From Gammaproteobacteria bacterium (GTDB lineage Bacteria; Pseudomonadota; Gammaproteobacteria; JABABF01), in NCBI GenBank assembly GCA_965237805.1, contig OZ250153.1, positions 896,001 through 960,000 on the forward strand: 64,000 bases of DNA, given 5' to 3'. Under the pieces are notes generated by a model. That model saw nothing but the letters and a program-made list of their open reading frames with translations. It did not search any database and had not been told where the DNA came from. Position 1 is the stretch's first letter, and every line of letters begins with the position of its first letter. Shown in pieces: positions 8,634-32,215 of this stretch. The translations under genes were made by a program, and so were the position numbers.

Positions 8634-9734
8634 ATGAGCGAAATCAAGCGGGCCAAGGCCATCACCGAGGACGGTGCCAAGCTGTTCATTCAGGATGTGA
8701 CGTTGCGCGACGGCATGCATGCCATCCGCCATATGTATGGCATCGAGCATGTGCAGAAGATCGCACGGGCACTCGACGCGGCGCGGGTGGATGCGCTGGA
8801 AGTGGCGCACGGCGACGGCTTGGCTGGCTCCAGCTTCAACTACGGCTTCGGCGCACACACCGACAAAGAGTGGATCGCGGCGGTGGCCGATGTGCTGGAG
8901 CACGCACGGCTGACGACGCTGATCCTGCCCGGTATCGCCGTCAAGGGAGACTTGAAATGGGCGTGGGACTTGGGGGTGCGTTCGGTGCGCGTGGCGACGC
9001 ACTGCACCGAGGCCGATGTCTCGCGCCAGCACATCGAATACGCCCGCGAGCTGGGCATGGACACTGTCGGCTTTCTGATGATGTCGCATATGAGCGGGCC
9101 CGAGGCGCTGGCCGAACAAGCCGCTCTGATGGAGAGCTACGGGGCGCAGTGCGTCTATGTCGTAGACAGCGGCGGGGCGCTGAACATGGACGACACCGAG
9201 GCGCGCTTCCGCGCTTTCGACGCCGCGCTCAAGCCCGAGACCGAACGCGGCATCCACGCGCACCACAACTTGGCCTTGGGCGTGGCCAATTCAGTGGTGG
9301 CGGTGCAAAACGGTGCCAACCGGGTGGACGCCTCGCTGGCCGGCATGGGTGCCGGTGCTGGCAATGCGCCACTGGAGGTATTCATCGCAGCAGTGGAGCG
9401 CATGGGCTGGAACCACGGCTGCGAATTGTATCCACTGATGGATGCCGCCGACGACTTGGTGCGACCACTGCAAGATCGCCCGGTGCGGGTGGACCGCGAG
9501 ACGCTGTCCTTGGGCTACGCCGGGGTCTATTCCAGCTTCCTGCGTCACGCCGAGCGGGCGGCGGAGCGCTACGAGTTGGAGACGCGGGACATCCTCGTCG
9601 AGCTGGGACGCCGCCGTATGGTCGGCGGACAGGAAGACATGATCGTCGATGTGGCGCTGGACATGGTGAAAGCGCGGGAAGGTGCTGGCGAGGCGGCGGC
9701 GGACAGCGAGGGCCAGCGCAAGGCGGCGGGGTGA
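8634..9734 (+). CDS. dmpG: 4-hydroxy-2-oxovalerate aldolase
   Basis: [50 protein letters not shown]. Confidence 0.96.
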
Positions 9735-11284
9735 TGGCTAAAGACAAAAATCGCAAAACCATACCGGCTATTCGCATTGAACAATGGATGCAGGAGTGGG
9801 AGGAAATACCTGACTCACAGGAGATGGAGAGGCATTTCTATGCTTTCAGCATGAATGTTTTAGATCTGAAGCGATTAAGCGCTGTACATCAACGTAGCAC
9901 TCAAGGGAGAGAGAGTGCTAGTCAGGATGACAATATACAACGAAGGCTAGATATAGGGAGATCTAAAAAGATTGCTCAGTATGTGCGCTATGGGTACCCG
10001 ATGGACACTGTCACAAAAACCGCACAGGAAAAGGAAGATATAAGCCTGCGTAATCCCGGATGGTTGCCTGCCATTATAGTAAATATCGTCAAGAGTGAAG
10101 ATACAAGAATATTGAGAAAGGATGCAGTAAAAATCGAAGATAATGGGAATTCAAGATTTGAGATCAAACTACCAAACGGATTTAACAAGAATTGGGAGCC
10201 TACAGCACTACACCCAATCGAAGTCATTGATGGGCAACACAGGCTTGCTGCATTCGAAGAAACCACTGAGGAGGGCAAATATGAAAAATATGAGTTGCCA
10301 GTTATCGCATTCCACGGCCTTAGCCGCGCAAAGCAAGCCTATCTGTTTTACACAATTAACATACGCCCCAAAAAAATAAATACAAGTTTGGCTTATGATT
10401 TATACCCATTGTTGAGGCAAGCAACATGGCTGGAAAGCGGCCCAGATGCCCACAAGGTGCAGGCATACAGGGAGATCAGGGCACGCGAGATTATCGACCT
10501 GCTGTGGGGGCACCCCAAGAGCCCGTGGCAGCATCGTATAAATATGCTTGGAGAATCCTTGGGGCAGGAGGCTGGAACCCAAGTATCACAAGCAGCTTGG
10601 GTGCGGTCACTATATAGTACTTTCATGAAAAAATCCACAAGTAAAATTGGTGGTTTATACTATGCTAAAAACCTTAATTCCGACAACGAAAACAACGATC
10701 CATGGGCTTGGCCTATTAGTCAGCAAGTAGCTCTTTTGATAACAATGGGGAATATGCTACGGCACCATCTGAATAATAGTGAGTCCTTCAATAGCAAATT
10801 TTGTCTTCTAAACCAAGATGTTGGCATGCGAGGTTTGTTAAATTTATGGAATGACATGCTTTTTACTTGGGCAAGTGAATCTTCCAACAATGCCAAACAA
10901 TTGCACGACGCTTTCAAGTTGCCACCCCCAACAGGACAGCAAGAGGAGCCCTCAGAGGCACACAATGAATTGCACAAAAAAATAGATATGTGTCTTCAAA
11001 AAAGCATGGTCAGGGATCCGACAGATGAAAATTCAGCACTAGATTTCATGGACAACTTGTCTAAACATCTTTCCAGTTATAATTGGAACACTTTCAAGCA
11101 TGAAGCAGTGCAGCAATTACCTGCAGATTCTATCACCCGGATCCAAAAACAAGCCTTGCGAGGATCCGCCGGATACAAAATCATACGAGAAGGGCTGATC
11201 AAGCATATACAGGATCAGGGCAGCAATACGGAAATTTCAAATATAGCAAGCATTATATCGGAAAAACATGGAATCCAACCCTAA
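9734..11284 (+). CDS. DGQHR domain (DndB-like, ParB/Srx-related) protein
   Basis: IQR...EVIDGQHRL...QAYLFYTIN...KKINTSLAYDL canonical DGQHR-family motifs. True start is MAKDKN, with ATG overlapping the dmpG TGA. AT-rich. Confidence 0.88.
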   Translation: MAKDKNRKTIPAIRIEQWMQEWEEIPDSQEMERHFYAFSMNVLDLKRLSAVHQRSTQGRESASQDDNIQRRLDIGRSKKIAQYVRYGYPMDTVTKTAQEKEDISLRNPGWLPAIIVNIVKSEDTRILRKDAVKIEDNGNSRFEIKLPNGFNKNWEPTALHPIEVIDGQHRLAAFEETTEEGKYEKYELPVIAFHGLSRAKQAYLFYTINIRPKKINTSLAYDLYPLLRQATWLESGPDAHKVQAYREIRAREIIDLLWGHPKSPWQHRINMLGESLGQEAGTQVSQAAWVRSLYSTFMKKSTSKIGGLYYAKNLNSDNENNDPWAWPISQQVALLITMGNMLRHHLNNSESFNSKFCLLNQDVGMRGLLNLWNDMLFTWASESSNNAKQLHDAFKLPPPTGQQEEPSEAHNELHKKIDMCLQKSMVRDPTDENSALDFMDNLSKHLSSYNWNTFKHEAVQQLPADSITRIQKQALRGSAGYKIIREGLIKHIQDQGSNTEISNIASIISEKHGIQP

Positions 11285-11292
11285 AATCTATT

Positions 11293-12570
11293 ATGAGTTC
11301 CCAGGGGCAGCGCAGAAACACGGAAGAAATGATGGGAGTATTTGACCGTGCATCCACTGCCAGTGTCGCAGGGGCTGCCGCGGAAATTCAGATTGAAGAT
11401 TTCAATTTTTCCACCCTAAACCCAAGTAATAGTTCACCTAAAAATACACATTTTTTGGCTAGCGCGATAGCGCATGGGCTAGATGGGTGGGAATATTTGG
11501 GTATGGCACTTATGAGCCACCTCCATGGCAGGCATATAATAGCCTTCCATCTGGCTTATTACGCACAGTTGAGAGCAGCTAAATCCCTATTATGCTGCAA
11601 CGGAATCTATCTAGAAGGCAGCATTGCATATGTTCTGAAAGAAAGCCAGTATAAGGGTGAGAGAGAACAATTGTCAGGGGCAAAAGGGCCGCATGAAATA
11701 ATATGGGAAATGCACAATAAAATGCCTGCAGAAAGTTGGATTGACAATGTATTCGGCTTCAATATACTGGAATTTATTAAGGACGTAACAGATGGCATGG
11801 TCGGCGATGAAGCAGTTTCCAAAGTTATTCAAAAACTAAAACAGCAACTCGGCAGAGAATCTGCATTCAGCGATAAAACAAAGTTCTACAGAAATCATGT
11901 GAGTTATCAAGCTCAATCTATTATTAAGGGTGAAAATACGGCAGAATCAATCGACGATAAATATGAATTTGCAAAGACATTTTGGGCCACAATGTCTCCA
12001 GACATAGCAATAAAATTAATCTTGATTTCTGAAATTTTACGAAGCCTAAAAAGATATGTGTCCAGATCACATTTAGCACGCTATAAGCTGAAAATTGAAT
12101 CCGCACTGCAAGATCATGGAATTGATCAGGGAGGGATAGAATGGATAACAAGAGGACCAGATAGTGAAGATGGTAAAAGTATTCAATTTTGGGCTCTGCA
12201 AGAGGATATATTAATGGGAGAGGATTTTTCCAAAGTGGCACCGCATTATGTGCAATGCGCTATAAGCAGAGGCGCCTTATTGCTCCAGATCGCATCGGAT
12301 GCCTGCAAGGACAGGATCGGAGACTCTCAGAATGCTAAATCAGTAGTACACGAAGTGGCAGAATTGTTTGGTGAGAAAAGGGCTCTGTGGGAAGACTCAG
12401 GAGAGATCGAAAGGTATGCTGATTTATACATTCCTATAACAAGTTATTTCGATGATGGGGATGGGGGAGATGATGCGAGAAAATGGACGTCTATACAAAA
12501 AATAGCGGCACTGGGATGTGAAAGAATTGCGCTCTGGCTACTCATGCCAGATGATGGGCCTGAATCGTGA
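11293..12570 (+). CDS. Hypothetical protein with HEPN-like motifs
   Basis: 425 aa, AT-rich, operonic. AYYAQLRAAKSLL...GPHE...YRNHVSY resembles the YYA...ALL...H...R-x4-Y pattern of UPF0332-type HEPN domains. The ORF is solid; the fold call is inference. Confidence 0.6.
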   Translation: MSSQGQRRNTEEMMGVFDRASTASVAGAAAEIQIEDFNFSTLNPSNSSPKNTHFLASAIAHGLDGWEYLGMALMSHLHGRHIIAFHLAYYAQLRAAKSLLCCNGIYLEGSIAYVLKESQYKGEREQLSGAKGPHEIIWEMHNKMPAESWIDNVFGFNILEFIKDVTDGMVGDEAVSKVIQKLKQQLGRESAFSDKTKFYRNHVSYQAQSIIKGENTAESIDDKYEFAKTFWATMSPDIAIKLILISEILRSLKRYVSRSHLARYKLKIESALQDHGIDQGGIEWITRGPDSEDGKSIQFWALQEDILMGEDFSKVAPHYVQCAISRGALLLQIASDACKDRIGDSQNAKSVVHEVAELFGEKRALWEDSGEIERYADLYIPITSYFDDGDGGDDARKWTSIQKIAALGCERIALWLLMPDDGPES

Positions 12571-13697
12571 CTATAAAATATATGGGCTCAAAACAAAATA
12601 TGCTTGCAAATGGTCTTGGAAAATTATTAAAGAAAGAATGCGAAGGGAGAAAAAGATTCGTTGACCTATTTTGTGGATCTGGATCTGTATCCCATTACAT
12701 GGCAGAGCACAGTTCTCTGCCTGTTGTAGCGGTTGATCTACAGAAGTATTCCACTATGCTTTCTAATGCCATAATAAATCGAACCGACACTGTCGAGCCA
12801 AGTATATTTGACCAATGGCTGAGTCGTATTAATTCCAAAAGGATCAAGCGAAAATTCCGGAACATGGAATATAAGGAAAATCACTGTTTCAAGGAGTACG
12901 CAGAACAAGCACGAATGTCTTGTGCGCAATCACGCGGCTATATAACCAAAGCATATGGGGGTCATTATTTTAGCCCACAACAAGCATTGACTTTAGATGT
13001 GGCATTGGAAACCGCTCCTCAACGTCAGCCCGATTACACGATGGGTATCGCAGCTCTCATTGTGGCTGCAAGTAAGTGTGCTGCCGCCCCTGGCCATACG
13101 GCACAGCCATTGAATCCATATAAAAAAGCATCTAAATTTGTTCGGCGAGCATGGGAGAATGATATTCTTATTATTTTAAAAAATACTCTAATAAATTTCT
13201 CCCAAAGAAAAGCACAAAAAAGAGGGGGTGCTTTGGTGTCAAATGCAAATGATTTTGCCAAGGAAGTAAGGCGTGGCGACCTAGTGTTTATTGATCCTCC
13301 ATATTCCGAAGTGCAATATAGCAGATTCTATCATGTGTTAGAAACAATTGCTCAAGGACGTTGCAGTAAAGTTTCTGGCGTTGGGCGCTATCCTCCTCAG
13401 CTAGAGAGGCCTAGATCAGAATATAGTCTCCGCTCGCAATCAAGTAAAGCTTTAGAATCTATATTAGATATTTTATCTTCCAAAGGTTGTAAAGTGGTGA
13501 TGACGTTTCCAAGAAAAGAGTGTAGCAATGGGTTATCAGGTGACCAGGTGATTTCCTTGTCTGAAAAATACTTTAGGAATGTAGCAACGACAACACCGGA
13601 TCATGCGGAATTAAGCACTTTAGGTGGTTTTAAGGATACAAAACGTGGAGCCCGCCAAGTATCAACAGAAATGATCCTGACCTTATCAACACATTGA
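12567..13697 (+). CDS. D12-class (alpha group) N6-adenine DNA methyltransferase
   Basis: IKYMGSK (motif X), FVDLFCGSGSVS (motif I), LVFIDPPY (motif IV), QYSRFYHVLETI; GTGA overlap with the upstream gene. Confidence 0.9.
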   Translation: MTIKYMGSKQNMLANGLGKLLKKECEGRKRFVDLFCGSGSVSHYMAEHSSLPVVAVDLQKYSTMLSNAIINRTDTVEPSIFDQWLSRINSKRIKRKFRNMEYKENHCFKEYAEQARMSCAQSRGYITKAYGGHYFSPQQALTLDVALETAPQRQPDYTMGIAALIVAASKCAAAPGHTAQPLNPYKKASKFVRRAWENDILIILKNTLINFSQRKAQKRGGALVSNANDFAKEVRRGDLVFIDPPYSEVQYSRFYHVLETIAQGRCSKVSGVGRYPPQLERPRSEYSLRSQSSKALESILDILSSKGCKVVMTFPRKECSNGLSGDQVISLSEKYFRNVATTTPDHAELSTLGGFKDTKRGARQVSTEMILTLSTH

Positions 13698-13724
13698 TGA
13701 CCGACCAGAACCACACGCCCCCCC

Positions 13725-14051
13725 ATGCCATACCTCTACCTCACCCTAGCCATCGTCACCGAAGTCATCGGCACCAGCGCGCTCAAGGCCTCAGAAGGCT
13801 TTACGCTGTGGCGGCCCAGTGCGCTGACGATGTTCAGTTACGCCCTGTCGTTGTATTTTTTTGCCCTGTCGTTGAAAACCATTCCGGTCGGCGTCGCCTA
13901 CGCCATCTGGGCTGGCGCTGGCATCGCTCTGATTACTCTCGTCGGGGCGGCAGTCTTCAAGCAGTACCCGGACGGCCCAGCTCTGTTCGGTATCGCCCTG
14001 ATCTGCGCTGGTGTGATCACCATCTATCTGTTCTCTAAAATGGCACACTAA
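13725..14051 (+). CDS. SMR family (EmrE/QacE-like) efflux transporter
   Basis: 108 aa, 4 TM, LAIVTEVIGTSALK (conserved Glu), IPVGVAYAIWAGAG. Confidence 0.92.
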   Translation: MPYLYLTLAIVTEVIGTSALKASEGFTLWRPSALTMFSYALSLYFFALSLKTIPVGVAYAIWAGAGIALITLVGAAVFKQYPDGPALFGIALICAGVITIYLFSKMAH

Positions 14052-14087
14052 ACATCGTAGCACCCGCTTGGGAGTAGACCTCACGCT

Positions 14088-15155
14088 ATGCCCCACCACC
14101 GCATTCTCATCGTCGGGGCCGGGCCGACCGGTCTGACCGCCGCGCTGGAACTGGCCCGCCGCGGTATCGTGCCCGAGGTGGTGGAGAAACGCGCCACGCC
14201 CTCCGGTCTCTCCCGCGCTGTCGGTATCCTGCCCCGCACCATGCGCCTGCTACAGCCCTCGGGCGTGAGTGAAGCCATCCGCAATGAGGCCGTCGCCATA
14301 GGCGGCGTGCGCCTCCACCTAGACGATGCCCTCATTGCCCGCATCGCACTGAACCTGGAGAGCGACCCCAACAACCGCCTCTTCGCGCTGGCGCAAGACC
14401 GCACCGAGACGCACCTGTGCGAGGCCTTCACCCGCCATGGCGGCTCCGTGCGCTATGGCGCGACACTGGAGGCCATCACGCAAACGGAGGATAAAGTCCA
14501 AGTCACCGTCGATGGCAGCCCCGACGACTATGACTATGTGATCGGTGCCGACGGCGCGGGGAGCGTGGTGCGACAGGCGCTGGGCATCGCCTTCGACGGC
14601 ATCGATCTGCCAGAAAAATGGGCAATCGCCGATGTCGACTGCCCCGATTGGCCCTCCCCAGAGTGTTTTTGCCTCTACCTGTGCAGCGCTGGACGCGTCG
14701 TCGTCGTCGTGCCGCTGGAGGCCACACGCTTTCGCGTCATCTCCAATACTGAAGATGCCTTGGCCACCCTGCCCGTGCCGATGCCGGTCAGCCACATCCG
14801 CCGACAGGCCAGCTTCCACATCGCTGTACGGCAGGCGACGCACTACCGACAGGGCCGCGTTTTTCTCGCTGGCGATGCCGCCCACTGCCACTCGCCGGTC
14901 GGTGGGCGCGGCATGAATCTGGGCATCGCCGATGCCGCCGAGCTGGCTCGGTGCATAGTCGAGGATGATCTGGACGGCTATCAGGCGGCGCGCCATCCAC
15001 ATGGCACGCAAACCATCGCGATGAGCGAGCGCGCCAGAAAAACTGCCACCGCTTCCTCGGCGTGGCGGCGTGGGCTGTTGACCGTGCCGATACGGCTGGC
15101 GAGCGCCCTGCCACCCCTGCAACGGCGCTTGGGCAGAGTGCTGTTAGATCTCTGA
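14088..15155 (+). CDS. FAD-dependent monooxygenase (aromatic hydroxylase/UbiH-like)
   Basis: IVGAGPTGL, IGADGAGS, FLAGDAAHCHSPVGGRGMNLGIADA. Confidence 0.9.
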   Translation: MPHHRILIVGAGPTGLTAALELARRGIVPEVVEKRATPSGLSRAVGILPRTMRLLQPSGVSEAIRNEAVAIGGVRLHLDDALIARIALNLESDPNNRLFALAQDRTETHLCEAFTRHGGSVRYGATLEAITQTEDKVQVTVDGSPDDYDYVIGADGAGSVVRQALGIAFDGIDLPEKWAIADVDCPDWPSPECFCLYLCSAGRVVVVVPLEATRFRVISNTEDALATLPVPMPVSHIRRQASFHIAVRQATHYRQGRVFLAGDAAHCHSPVGGRGMNLGIADAAELARCIVEDDLDGYQAARHPHGTQTIAMSERARKTATASSAWRRGLLTVPIRLASALPPLQRRLGRVLLDL

Positions 15156-28868: not shown

Positions 28869-29016
28869 GGGGGACTCGGCACTGCACGCGGTGGCAGGGC
28901 GGGCTGCCGTGCGGTAGCCTTGGATGCTGCTGGGGGATTATACGAGAGGCAGCTGCGGGGGCAAGGTATTGCGCATAGCGGCAAAAGTGCACAGATTGGC
29001 AGACATCGCCTGCCCC

Positions 29017-29120
29017 GCCGCTTTATAGCGCCCTTGCGCGTGCCTCCTCGTACAAAACAAAATCCTGATGGTAGATCTTTTGAATCCTTGCCCGGACTTG
29101 CGGGTCGTTTTCCACATAAT
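29017..29120. repeat. Direct repeat copy 1 (3' end of the chimeric gene)
   Basis: gccgcttt.tagcgcccttg.g.gtgcctcctcgtacaaaacaaaatcctgatggt...cttttgaatccttgccc.gacttgcgggtcgttt matches 30874-30977. Confidence 0.9.
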
Positions 29121-30816
29121 CTCGCAGCGTGGAATATTGGAGCTGTGTGACTGTCAGTGGGGCTGGTTTGAACCCCATAAAGATGTTGTGTATTACCCCA
29201 ACCAGTCGACGTGGATGTGTCAAAAAATAATATATCCGACGCATCGTTCGAAGACCAAGGTGGAAGAAATCGAGCAAGGCTAGGTTGCTAGCACTTGTTG
29301 AGTGGATTCTGAACAGAGAATCATGTCTAAACTCAGCATTAAATCCAAGGATTTTGTTTAGTTTGTCAATGCCGGATTCAATACTTTCCTGTAAAAGCAC
29401 ATAGTCAATGTCACTGAGTGTCAATCCCTTACTTGACAAAAACTCATGCTGTGGGAATATATGCACATTATAAAATCGTCCTTCTATATAATCCAAAAAT
29501 AGGTTGAAACTATTTTTGACATCAACGCTTAAAACTTCATGCCACTTGGTTTGTATGGTTTCAGCAGAGCAGATGTCATATCTGTGCGTCTTGGCAAGGT
29601 GGAAGAAACCAGACACTGCCCTGTGAAATGGGTCGCGGATCACCACGATTGTACGGTGCCCATATGGCTCCACCTCTGAAAAACAAAACTCGTCCGCTAT
29701 GGTATATCCCCACATCTCAGCAAGGCTCGTCGACATATTTTTAGGGATATGGATCAATCCAAATGGTTGATTTGAGACGGTGTTGTCAAACATGCGGATT
29801 TCTTGCAAATCCACCTCCCTCCCGCCGAAGTTCTCTTTGAAATCAATCACCGGTGCTAGGGGGTTATTGCCGCTGAGTGCTTGTTTCAAATCCTTGGCCT
29901 GCGATAGCACATCGATGAGCTTGTGGCCGATGTGGCGAAAGCGTTGGATTTGCACAAGATGCCGGGATTGATCGCTCAGGCCATCGCCTAGTGGTGGGAC
30001 CTCCTGCTCAATGTAATAGTCGAGCTCGCGACGTAGAAATCCGGCACCTTCGTGATCAAAAATTCCTCGTATGCTATATTCCTCTAACCAATGGCGCACC
30101 CGGGCTGTGGAAACAGCATGTCCTAAAAGTTTCAGGCACCCACTAATGCGCTCCGCCACCTCTTTGTTTATGATGTGCTGACTGCGTTTTTGATCGTCGA
30201 CACGATGCTCTAAGTAAATGGTGGAGTGGTTGTATTGCTGGATCACAGGTTGATCTTCACGCAACATAAAACGGCGGTTTTTGTCGTTCGAAAATTTGAT
30301 ATCACCCTGCTCTGAGCTTGGCCCAACTGTTTTAAACTGTATCTCTCCAATAGGAAACCATACGATATAGTCACGGTAATACTTAATCGTTTGGATGGTG
30401 TGCCAGCTGTAGTTCCGCCAGTGGCGTTTGCTCGCTTTGTCCTCGGTGTAGTAGCGGCGGAAAAACCGACATAAGTGCCCATATATCTCGCGCTCCGCAG
30501 TGTGGGTATCCGCGCCCGCAAGCTCATGCTGTACCTGCAATGCCTGAGTCTTAGGTGATATCCCTGGATCCATCCTTGTGGGTTCAAGGCGCACAACTTC
30601 CGGATCGGGTGCTCGTTGCGCCTCGGCCTTGTCGTTGGAGTGGCATTCAGCAAGCACCCTGCGTATCTGTGGCGGCAGGCCATGTTCCAAAAATGCGTCC
30701 AGCTCTTCGCGGTGCGCGTTCATGTGCCGACAAATGCTAATGTCTACATCAACCTGACCCAGCTTAAACAGCGTTACGAGCTTGCCCTTTAGTGCGTAAA
30801 TCTTCTGCATAGCCAA
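29023..30816 (-). CDS. Chimeric protein: type III Mod-like N-terminal region fused to a Sulfotransfer_2-type domain
   Basis: N-part: LFKLGQVDVD...EREIYGHLCRFFRRYY...GFLRRELDYYIEQEV...RHIGHKLIDVLSQ. C-part: IHIPKNMSTSL, VIRDPFHRAVSGF, HIFPQ, IYHQDFVLY. No DPPY or FxGxG. AT-rich. Confidence 0.75.
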   Translation of the reverse strand: MAMQKIYALKGKLVTLFKLGQVDVDISICRHMNAHREELDAFLEHGLPPQIRRVLAECHSNDKAEAQRAPDPEVVRLEPTRMDPGISPKTQALQVQHELAGADTHTAEREIYGHLCRFFRRYYTEDKASKRHWRNYSWHTIQTIKYYRDYIVWFPIGEIQFKTVGPSSEQGDIKFSNDKNRRFMLREDQPVIQQYNHSTIYLEHRVDDQKRSQHIINKEVAERISGCLKLLGHAVSTARVRHWLEEYSIRGIFDHEGAGFLRRELDYYIEQEVPPLGDGLSDQSRHLVQIQRFRHIGHKLIDVLSQAKDLKQALSGNNPLAPVIDFKENFGGREVDLQEIRMFDNTVSNQPFGLIHIPKNMSTSLAEMWGYTIADEFCFSEVEPYGHRTIVVIRDPFHRAVSGFFHLAKTHRYDICSAETIQTKWHEVLSVDVKNSFNLFLDYIEGRFYNVHIFPQHEFLSSKGLTLSDIDYVLLQESIESGIDKLNKILGFNAEFRHDSLFRIHSTSASNLALLDFFHLGLRTMRRIYYFLTHPRRLVGVIHNIFMGFKPAPLTVTQLQYSTLRDYVENDPQVRARIQKIYHQDFVLYEEARARAL

Positions 30817-30873
30817 GTTTTTTTCATCTTAATGGCATCGCTGTTTATTAGCTTGGAAGCCAGCCGCATCACA

Positions 30874-30977
30874 GCCGCTTTCTAGCGCCCTTGTGAGTGC
30901 CTCCTCGTACAAAACAAAATCCTGATGGTGGGGCTTTTGAATCCTTGCCCTGACTTGCGGGTCGTTTCCAACATAAT
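30874..30977. repeat. Direct repeat copy 2 (3' end of the decayed paralog)
   Basis: Near-identical to 29017-29120. Confidence 0.9.
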
Positions 30978-32215
30978 AACACAGCATAGATTAAAGCTGT
31001 GGAGGTGGTTTTGTGGTGATTGGCATAGGGGCCAGAAAACCCATGAAAAACTCGTCGACTAGCCGGGGAAATTCAACTAGATTTATATATAAACGGTGTC
31101 CGTATAGCGCCGCCTCCGAAAAATCAAATGTTTGCTCTAAGCTCAATTGCCACATAGCCTCTAGGCTGGAGGAGGCATTCTTGGGGATGCTAATGTATAC
31201 GAAAGTCTCGGTGCCGAAGCTATCGATCAGGGAGCATGGCTCCGTCGCGCAATCCTCCTTAAAATAAGTGGTCGACACAAGGCTTTGCTTTAGCCTGAGA
31301 TCTTGTTTTAAATTCTTGGCCTCCGCCAAAAAATCGAAGAATCTGTAAGCGATCCGGCGGAGAGCTATGGTGATCCGAGTAAATCGCTCTGGATTGATTG
31401 GGGTTGCCTTAATGTAGGCGTCAAGCTCGCTGCGCAGAAAGCCAGCAACATGGTGATCAAAGGCGGATCGGTTGAGATAATATAATAAATTTCCATACAG
31501 AAGTTTGGCTGGCAAATAGCGCCTCCACTTGGCCAGTTTGGCATCGTCCAAGCTGACGATGATGGCTTCGTGATATTCCTGCAGATGACATTCAAATTGT
31601 CTTTTTGATCGTCGACGATACGATTCTCGAAATGCAGCTCCAAGCGGATTCCATCTGGGGTGACTGGCTTGTCTGCACGCAACAGCGGGCGCAGCTTGGC
31701 ACCTTCAGCCAATTCGACATCGCCCTGCCCCGCAGCAGTCTTGAAAGCCAAATAATAGCCGCGCGGATTAACCTTGACGAGTACCGAGCCACTTTGATAT
31801 CGTACCGGCTGTAGTGACCCCAGTGGTGTTTTTCCGCCCCTTCCTCACCGTAGTAGCGGCGGAAAAATCGACATGGGTGCTGGTAGACTGCGTGCGCTAC
31901 AGCTGTGGCGTCGCCACTGGCCAGCTCAGACTGCGCCCCCAATGCCCATGGCTCGGCAGACTGTTGCGGAGCTCCCCCGGCGAATTCTCCCCGCAGCTCG
32001 GCTTACTCGCTCGACCGGTAGTTTGCACACTCCTGCTGTATCTGTGGCAGCAGGCGATTGTCCAAGAAGGCGTTGATCTCGTCTCGGTGCGCGCACAGAA
32101 TCCGGCATATGGCGATGCCCGGATTGAGCGGCCCCCGATGAAGCAGCATGCTGAGATTCTCCCACCAGATGCGCAACGCCCTCAGGCTGAATTTTGCCCC
32201 ACCCAATACCACCAA
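30874..32215 (-). pseudogene. Frameshifted paralog of the Mod-N/sulfotransferase chimera
   Basis: Collinear fragments: ICRILCAHRDEINAFLDNRLLPQI (32003-32215), VYQHPCRFFRRYY (31592-31942), LHFENRIVDDQK (31365-31751), AGFLRSELDAYIK...ISIPKNASSSL (30991-31551). The RDP...S motif region is deleted. Confidence 0.8.

Follow-up and report, generated by a model that had tools for sequence, protein, structure and literature searches.

A cassette of three co-oriented, tightly coupled open reading frames (ORFs) lies on the + strand at positions 9734-13697 of the window, by which we mean the whole 64,000-nt stretch of contig OZ250153.1 from a Gammaproteobacteria bacterium (assembly GCA_965237805.1) that was analysed here. 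We predict that the cassette is probably a horizontally acquired restriction-modification (R-M)-like defence system. The first gene, g1 (9734..11284, +), encodes a 516-aa DGQHR protein; the second, g2, also called MID (11293..12570, +), encodes a 425-aa all-helical protein of an unclassified family; and the third, g3 (12567..13697, +, 376 aa, GTG start), encodes a D12-class (alpha) N6-adenine DNA methyltransferase (MTase) of the 'long' subtype. The conserved unit is the g1+g2 pair and not a fixed trio, and the DNA-modification gene beside the pair is exchanged from locus to locus. The three genes had been singled out in an initial annotation of this DNA; its observation was confirmed, and its interpretation was partly supported.

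The g1-g2 pair is conserved and its modification partner is exchanged

One genome per species was scanned for related loci. This gave 127 loci, of which 80 were kept for neighbourhood analysis; ORFs were called in these 80 and searched with the g2 profile, g1 and g3, and other neighbours were searched for with Pfam and small profiles. It can be seen that a g1 homologue stands directly upstream of the g2 homologue in all 79 loci with upstream sequence (L014 is cut at its start); in 71 of these the ORFs either overlap or are separated by 45 nt at most.

A same-strand DNA-modification gene was found beside the pair in 72 of the 80 loci, and its kind varies. A long D12 MTase lies downstream in 40 loci (in L017 as one fused ORF) and upstream, together with a g1 homologue of about 725 aa, in another 7 that are largely Bacteroidota-titled, which makes 47 loci with this type. 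Thirteen of the other loci have a short Dam-like D12 MTase downstream, and six have an N6_N4 MTase (PF01555); an MT-A70 MTase precedes the pair in three, and DndC-DndD-DndE follows it in three more (L029, L039, L050). In the remaining loci a D12 gene lies on the opposite strand (2 loci), no modification gene accompanies the pair though flanking sequence is present (3 loci), or the flank is too short for the partner to be judged (3 loci). On a FastTree tree of 76 g2 homologues the partner type has changed at least nine times, and the short D12 type has at least three origins even when only well-supported branches are counted. The comparative test requested in the initial annotation had a positive outcome, in that the genes co-occur; the pairing of g1 with g2 holds throughout, but the place of the N6-methyladenine (m6A) MTase can be taken by others, at least five kinds of partner being known from the loci. 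The R-M-like logic proposed there is supported indirectly by this interchangeability of the modification genes.

If the genes had no joint function, an orphan MTase would merely stand beside two unrelated mobile-element genes. Loci with the pair and without a modification gene would agree with this, and there are three of them. We consider the idea very improbable, given that a same-strand modification gene adjoins the pair in 72 of 80 loci, that ORF overlaps and gaps of a few nucleotides are the rule, and that the partner label is clustered on the MID tree (none of 200 shuffles scored as low).

In L005, L017, L045 and L049 g1 or g2 is split or truncated and the MTase ORF is full-length, as happens where a restriction gene has been lost; in L072 both g2 and the MTase gene are fragmented. 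Since most such loci are metagenome-assembled genomes (MAGs), some of the breaks may be assembly errors. The core is thus kept while its partner is exchanged among five kinds, the cassettes are compact, mobile and low in GC, and core genes sometimes decay beside an intact MTase gene. Most simply, the core is probably the dangerous part, serving restriction or as effector, and the modification gene the protection.

Further genes were observed where the pair is linked to Dnd. The DGQHR gene is immediately preceded by a small gene (5669-6139 in L039, with equivalents of 138-156 aa in L029 and L050), and the L039 product matches TIGR04062, 'DNA phosphorothioation-associated protein 4' (5e-46). In L050, PbeA/PbeC-type genes lie upstream, and an AAA-ATPase gene stands between MID and dndC.

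The cassette is a low-GC island

The initial annotation had described three co-oriented, coupled and AT-rich genes, and this description was borne out in each respect. The ATG of g1 overlaps the stop codon of an upstream aldolase gene (TGATG), g1 and g2 are separated by 8 nt, and the GTG with which g3 begins lies over the stop codon of g2, an overlap of 4 nt. The guanine-plus-cytosine (GC) content of the cassette is about 42%; it is 0.41-0.43 over 10001-13000 compared with 0.60-0.69 in the flanks and 0.616 in the whole 1.73-Mb genome. By GC profile and flanking genes, the low-GC island (9734..13697, no strand) consists exactly of g1, g2 and g3. It is bordered by a 4-hydroxy-2-oxovalerate aldolase-type gene (PF00682/PF07836) on one side and by an SMR efflux gene (PF00893) on the other. 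When the DNA was searched against 30 relatives, the flanking genes were matched and the island was not, and the same-genus genome G001 lacks the cassette. The cassette has the character of an island and was probably transferred horizontally. No convincing direct or inverted repeats marking an integration site were found in the cassette flanks, and a promoter and terminator scan of 9300-14200 returned fewer sites than shuffled sequence, with none at the cassette borders.

The slot between the two flanking genes was also inspected in G001. After the aldolase gene, an ORF start with a DPPY motif runs on the + strand (L082, 2733-2951) and is open at the contig end; this 73-aa fragment has no Pfam match. 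On another contig, a 183-aa ORF with HNH and Mrr_N domains (L086, 1869-2420, - strand) lies just upstream of the SMR gene. The slot in G001 looks like one that holds a different R-M cargo, which can only be inferred because the aldolase and SMR contigs are not joined. In the window, the aldolase-type gene extends to the island border, and its product (8634-9734) aligns with its relatives to residue 346 of 366 only, the last 20 residues being different.

g1 is a DGQHR protein distinct from DndB and DpdB

The gene identity assigned to g1 in the initial annotation, and the motifs named there, were recovered in its translation. The protein scores 87.3 bits against TIGR03187 (DGQHR; cut-off 58.85) and 38.5 bits against PF14072 (DndB; cut-off 29.1), the latter match covering only profile positions 9-159 of 338. 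It carries QR at 69-70, IDGQHR at 165-170 and FYTIN at 205-209, that is, the QR, DGQHR and FxxxN motifs that, with a profile score above cut-off, place it with the DGQHR domain and the ParB/Srx fold, as had been proposed. The ParB/Srx-fold domain is N-terminal (about residues 30-235) and is followed by a helical C-terminal domain (about 240-516) of unassigned fold. Foldseek against the Protein Data Bank (PDB) returned for g1 only ParB rows at E values of 0.25-0.31, and its sequence profile found no relative among PDB chains. An Atlas search with the C-terminal part yielded only unnamed clusters or clusters with 10-11% DndB.

Scores against the more specific models were low. g1 did not reach the DndB equivalog TIGR03233 (12.9 bits, cut-off 328), the DpdB equivalog NF041060 (20.2 bits, cut-off 300) or TIGR04172, DNA phosphorothioation-associated DGQHR protein 1 (70.5 bits, cut-off 450). 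The g1 copy of the Dnd-linked locus L039 is also below the last of these cut-offs (61.8 bits). The sole PADLOC match of g1 is DpdB at 3.7e-4. No restriction endonuclease (REase) model, whether PD-(D/E)xK, HNH or other, matched g1 or g2 in the Pfam and PADLOC scans, in agreement with the initial annotation, which had recognised no such motif. An identity of g1 with DndI was rejected; DndI is a DUF262 protein with an HNH domain.

The DGQHR protein had been thought to stand apart from dnd genes. This is only partly true, because DndCDE is among the at least five alternative partners: a dndBCDE cluster is absent from the window's locus and present in 3 of the 80 related loci, the association with Dnd being genuine in a single clade. 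No dndC-like gene was found in the 1.73-Mb genome with our own three-sequence DndC profile (dpd genes were not searched for). PF08870 (DndE) likewise gave no match there, yet it gave none in 14 control genomes either, so that this result is uninformative.

A second explanation starts from this kinship, namely that the pair is a DndB/DpdB-like accessory that regulates, targets or energises the neighbouring modification enzyme, for example as a transcriptional or NTP-dependent (nucleoside triphosphate-dependent) governor of methylation or phosphorothioation, and restricts nothing. Indeed, the only families matched by g1 are those of the DGQHR domain, which include DndB and DpdB; the former is described as a negative regulator and the latter as an ATPase driving DpdA. 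In L029, L039 and L050 the pair sits at the dndB position, upstream of dndC-dndD-dndE. DndB itself has been described as ParB-like plus HEPN by Makarova et al. in 2013 (PMC3632139), so that g1+g2 could be an expanded, split DndB. However, a regulator that is conserved while its enzyme is exchanged at least nine times among five unrelated modules would be unusual, and Dam-like MTases need no helper. The low-GC cassette found across many phyla and one archaeon, together with the slot with an HNH endonuclease in the sister genome, fits a selfish or defence module better, and the scores of g1 are far below both equivalog cut-offs. An accessory role of the pair therefore appears unlikely.

Longer forms of g1 were observed as well. 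In the mostly Bacteroidota-titled clade with the MTase gene upstream (L011, L026, L041, L043, L061, L065 and L076) the homologues are 717-731 aa long and carry an extra N-terminal part of about 240 aa, for which no Pfam match was found in the two copies scanned (L011 and L043).

MID belongs to a widespread unnamed family and may be HEPN-like

Searches of Pfam, PADLOC 2.0, NCBIfam and PHROGs with g2 returned nothing credible at E≤1; the weak rows comprised two PHROGs of unknown function and one NCBIfam entry (E 0.013-0.35). A word-indexed search found 11 relatives. When a profile of these was run against 1.84 billion cluster representatives, 1210 proteins were matched at E≤1e-3 and 855 at E≤1e-30, with lengths of 373-488 aa among the 150 matches listed. 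Because so many proteins of similar length are found, the g2 family is real, length-uniform and unnamed. Pfam gave no match at E≤0.01 for 100 g2 relatives (few scattered rows up to 0.1), and NCBIfam gave none for 8 further members.

Ten residues are invariant in 147 sequences of the family (H61, W66, H86, Y89, Y90, R94, H134, Y205, W231 and R326), and R200, N201, S204 and E410 are at least 90% conserved. The window's g2 retains all of them. It is at the same time the most divergent member sampled, with 18-26% identity to all relatives but one and at most 25% identity to the loci, and its branch is the longest on the family tree (2.79). Its sequence RNHVSY at 200-205 corresponds to the R200-N201-x-x-S204-Y205 pattern and includes the R-x4-Y named in the initial annotation.

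An AF2 model of g2 from the 11-row alignment (pLDDT 74.3, pTM 0.81) consists of helices throughout, apart from a small beta-hairpin region at 105-126. Foldseek found nothing for it at E≤0.001 in PDB and BFVD, and the sequence profile of g2 found no relative among PDB chains. An exhaustive VIA-align structure search placed HEPN proteins at the top, including AF0298 (2hsb), Csm6, a HEPN toxin and AbiV. Among named Atlas clusters, YaaC (0.77) and HEPN_AbiV (0.75) came nearest, both below the 0.9 level and to be taken as leads only. The R-N-x-x-S-Y pattern agrees with the HEPN motif in its spacing and in beginning with R-N, and ends in Tyr where the motif has His; g2 has no Rx4-6H motif of the HEPN type. 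HEPNs of the AbiV/AF0298 type are described as lacking the motif His and using a His from an insert between helices 2 and 3 (PMC3710099), and the invariant H134 of g2 sits in an insert like this. g2 may tentatively be regarded as a HEPN-like core with large inserts. The proposal of the initial annotation that g2 is HEPN-like is weakly favoured by the structural matches, the Atlas leads, the motif spacing and H134, but it finds no echo in profile searches: none of the HEPN Pfam models matched any of the 101 family members (g2 and 100 relatives). Membership of the MAE_28990 HEPN family was rejected, since hhalign of g2 against HEPN_MAE_28990 (PF18737 members) gave a probability of 0.09%, no Pfam HEPN model matched and no profile match was obtained in PF18737 loci.

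A HEPN-like g2 would also suit a variant of the defence reading in which the cassette is an abortive-infection or addiction module. The HEPN-type RNase toxin g2 would be restrained by g1, by the methylation status or by both; phage interference would release it, as with PrrC and EcoprrI, and the outcome would be death or arrest of the cell and not the cutting of foreign DNA. The HEPN proteins at the top of the structure search and the two named Atlas leads are in line with such a toxin, as is H134 in the place of the alternative His, and a survey of HEPN proteins proposes that R-M-linked HEPNs are back-up RNases (PMC3710099). The silence of all HEPN models over 101 family members and the negligible hhalign probability keep the HEPN assignment tentative, and the present results suit an RNA and a DNA target alike. 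Such a module is therefore quite improbable as the explanation of the cassette.

As to physical contact and fusion, prediction of a g1+g2 complex (alignments A3 and A2) scored 0.11 with a mark of 0.32, which decides neither way, and no fused g2 forms of 855 aa or longer were found in the protein search, which is weak evidence. A single 826-aa ORF in L017 (7824-10304) matches both MID and the long D12 MTase and is either a natural fusion or an assembly frameshift.

g3 is a D12-class adenine methyltransferase

g3 scores 66.9 bits against PF02086 (cut-off 22; 3e-18) and carries the DLFCGSG motif of S-adenosylmethionine binding (FxGxG) and the catalytic DPPY of D12-class N6-adenine MTases, so that the identity and the motifs given in the initial annotation stand. 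It did not reach the Dam subfamily TIGR00571 (35.8 bits, cut-off 114.85) and is not an orthodox Dam; it exceeds the Dam-like MTases of 13 sister loci in length by about 100 aa. Its PADLOC matches are to generic MTase_II models only (2.6e-25). In 39 loci MID is immediately followed by a homologue of g3 (1e-77 to 1e-101), and one more locus has it within the fused ORF.

Distribution and defence context

The g2 family comprises about 1,200 clusters at 50% identity and occurs in many bacterial phyla and in one archaeal MAG. It is rare on plasmids: tblastn matched 5 of 72,556 records, which come from two distinct plasmids. No match was obtained among 50,697 phage records. On the Zymomonas mobilis plasmid pZZM405 the trio is annotated as 'DGQHR domain-containing protein', 'hypothetical protein' and 'Dam family site-specific DNA-(adenine-N6)-methyltransferase', and on a Rhizobium plasmid it lies near Mu-transposase and TniB genes. 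Four Z. mobilis records share the 30,952-bp plasmid length of pZZM405. On this plasmid (L102), DUF4433 and macro-domain genes, which we take to be a DarT/DarG-like pair, were seen at 9878-11601, 1.9 kb downstream of the trio.

In PADLOC-DB 2.0.0, a search called for by the initial annotation, no single system was matched by all three components of the cassette, and g2 had no match at E≤1. To describe the surroundings, the loci of 16 kb or more (52 in all) were gone through in steps of three, and the first 14 so chosen gave 125 flanking ORFs. PADLOC matches at E≤1e-10, the cassette's own MTase excluded, were present in the flanks of 5 of the 14 loci, a figure that is descriptive and without a baseline. 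Whole systems among these five were CBASS in L030 and Pbe/Dnd in L050.

Other regions of the window's genome were noted. A second stretch of lower GC (0.46-0.52) at 29000-32000 of the window is unrelated to the cassette; among its ORFs are one of 597 aa with a sulfotransferase domain (PF03567, 4.8e-10) and two without a family. Elsewhere in the genome, six ORFs match the N6_N4 MTase profile (e.g. C1:766814-767674, 877260-878759 and 1246061-1247293), and eight regions have a GC content below 48%; together they suggest several more R-M-type islands.

Proposed mechanism

In the R-M-like system that we propose, the core would be a two-protein module made of the DGQHR (ParB/Srx-fold) protein and its helical, possibly HEPN-like partner. 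By analogy with SspE and DndI, g1 may serve as an NTP-gated sensor; it is likely to bind NTP or to hydrolyse it. The roles of sensor and effector, the NTP dependence and the defence activity proposed in the initial annotation are putative. The module would attack DNA, or the cell, when the mark of the neighbouring modification enzyme is missing; g3 would mark self DNA by m6A, and methylation would protect. The nuclease would be carried by g2 or by the C-terminal domain of g1. The target may be DNA or RNA, and the MTase may set the specificity, as it does in Type III or BREX-like systems. The reading is encouraged by the precedent of SspE and DndI, in which ParB-like NTPases sense a self mark and restrict unmodified DNA.

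Several findings weigh against it. Intact pairs have no modification gene nearby in L004, L013 and L067, and in L005 and L048 the MT-A70 gene may belong to another system, because a BglII-like REase gene stands beside it. The two DGQHR proteins that have been characterised are parts of modification and not of restriction modules, DndB being described as a regulator and DpdB as an ATPase that assists DpdA (PMC10853773, PMC12839542). Where the pair is linked to Dnd (three loci), it stands immediately before dndC, at the place of DndB. The window's g2 may be atypical of its family, because of its long branch and its low identity to the loci. In addition, a published ZM4 methylome lists three m6A motifs only, all assigned to other enzymes; it does not state whether the stock carried pZZM405, and it does not mention the cassette (PMC8432527).

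A bolder form of the R-M-like reading, which we hold to be possible but doubtful, is that DGQHR+MID is a modification-agnostic restriction module that serves whichever self-mark its neighbour writes. The marks would include m6A from three MTase classes, an N6_N4-class mark and backbone phosphorothioate. Such a module would couple to the enzyme that modifies the DNA, or to modification as it takes place, and would not read one chemical mark, and it would use a new catalytic variant of a HEPN-like fold, built from R-N-x-x-S-Y and the invariant H61, H86, R94, H134 and R326.

If the pair restricts, a widespread defence system is missing from the annotation libraries searched, and one copy of it stands on a native plasmid record of the model ethanologen Zymomonas mobilis; cassettes of this kind may hamper transformation without being noticed. 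It would also follow that the same restriction core can change its coupling between methylation and phosphorothioation, which would bear on the self/non-self wiring of SspE/DndI-type ParB-like NTPases, and it would give a role to DGQHR proteins outside Dnd and Dpd and to an unclassified family of 440-aa proteins.

Comparison with known systems

No paper on the trio was found in the open-access and preprint literature, although supplements, e.g. of PMC10853773 and PMC3710099, may list such neighbourhoods, and no experimental study of the pair or the trio was found in the literature searched. The claim of an undescribed system holds for the trio itself as far as this literature goes, but the theme of ParB, HEPN and methylase was already recorded in 2013 for unrelated families. 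Anantharaman et al. predicted operons of a ParB nuclease, a HEPN protein (MAE_28990 family) and a DNA methylase, reported as a table entry only, without experiments (PMC3710099). This is the nearest described analogue, with a ParB/Srx-fold gene upstream, an overlapping HEPN-type gene and sometimes a DNA methylase. We examined 15 cyanobacterial PF18737 loci, in which a HEPN gene of about 222 aa with a canonical RNxxxH is preceded by an overlapping gene of 363-403 aa; the latter was PF03235 (GmrSD_N/DUF262) in all five loci scanned, and in L093 a C5 methylase is adjacent. A motif start of R-N is common to both families (RNEIAH in the MAE_28990 family, RNxxSY in MID). However, the ParB-like protein is a DUF262 protein there and a DGQHR protein here, and the MAE_28990 HEPN is about 222 aa long with a canonical Rx4H, whereas MID is about 445 aa long and Tyr replaces His. 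Because the g1 and g2 profiles matched nothing at E≤1 in the 15 loci, and in view of the hhalign result, the 2013 operon is, as judged by these comparisons, an architectural parallel only, built from different families.

In SspE and DndI, the ParB-like NTPase domain is described as sensing the self mark, with NTP hydrolysis freeing the protein from self DNA, while a fused HNH domain nicks unmarked DNA; DndI harms the host when the mark is missing (PMC11662687). Both are single proteins in which a DGQQR DUF262 domain is fused to a DUF1524 HNH nickase, whereas g1 and g2 have no HNH match. Moreover, they sense phosphorothioate, and the DGQHR+MID pair is mostly coupled to MTases.

The cassette resembles DndB and DpdB in the DGQHR domain of g1 (TIGR03187, PF14072) and in its position beside a DNA-modification enzyme. 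It differs from them in that g1 is about 150 aa longer, with its own C-terminal helical domain, and is always paired with MID, the usual neighbour being an MTase. Classical Type II R-M systems share with it the compact mobile cassette with a D12 m6A MTase, and the corresponding slot of the sister genome holds an HNH endonuclease ORF. Unlike in Type II systems, the putative restriction part matches no REase model and consists of two proteins that remain constant across MTase types and do not vary with specificity.

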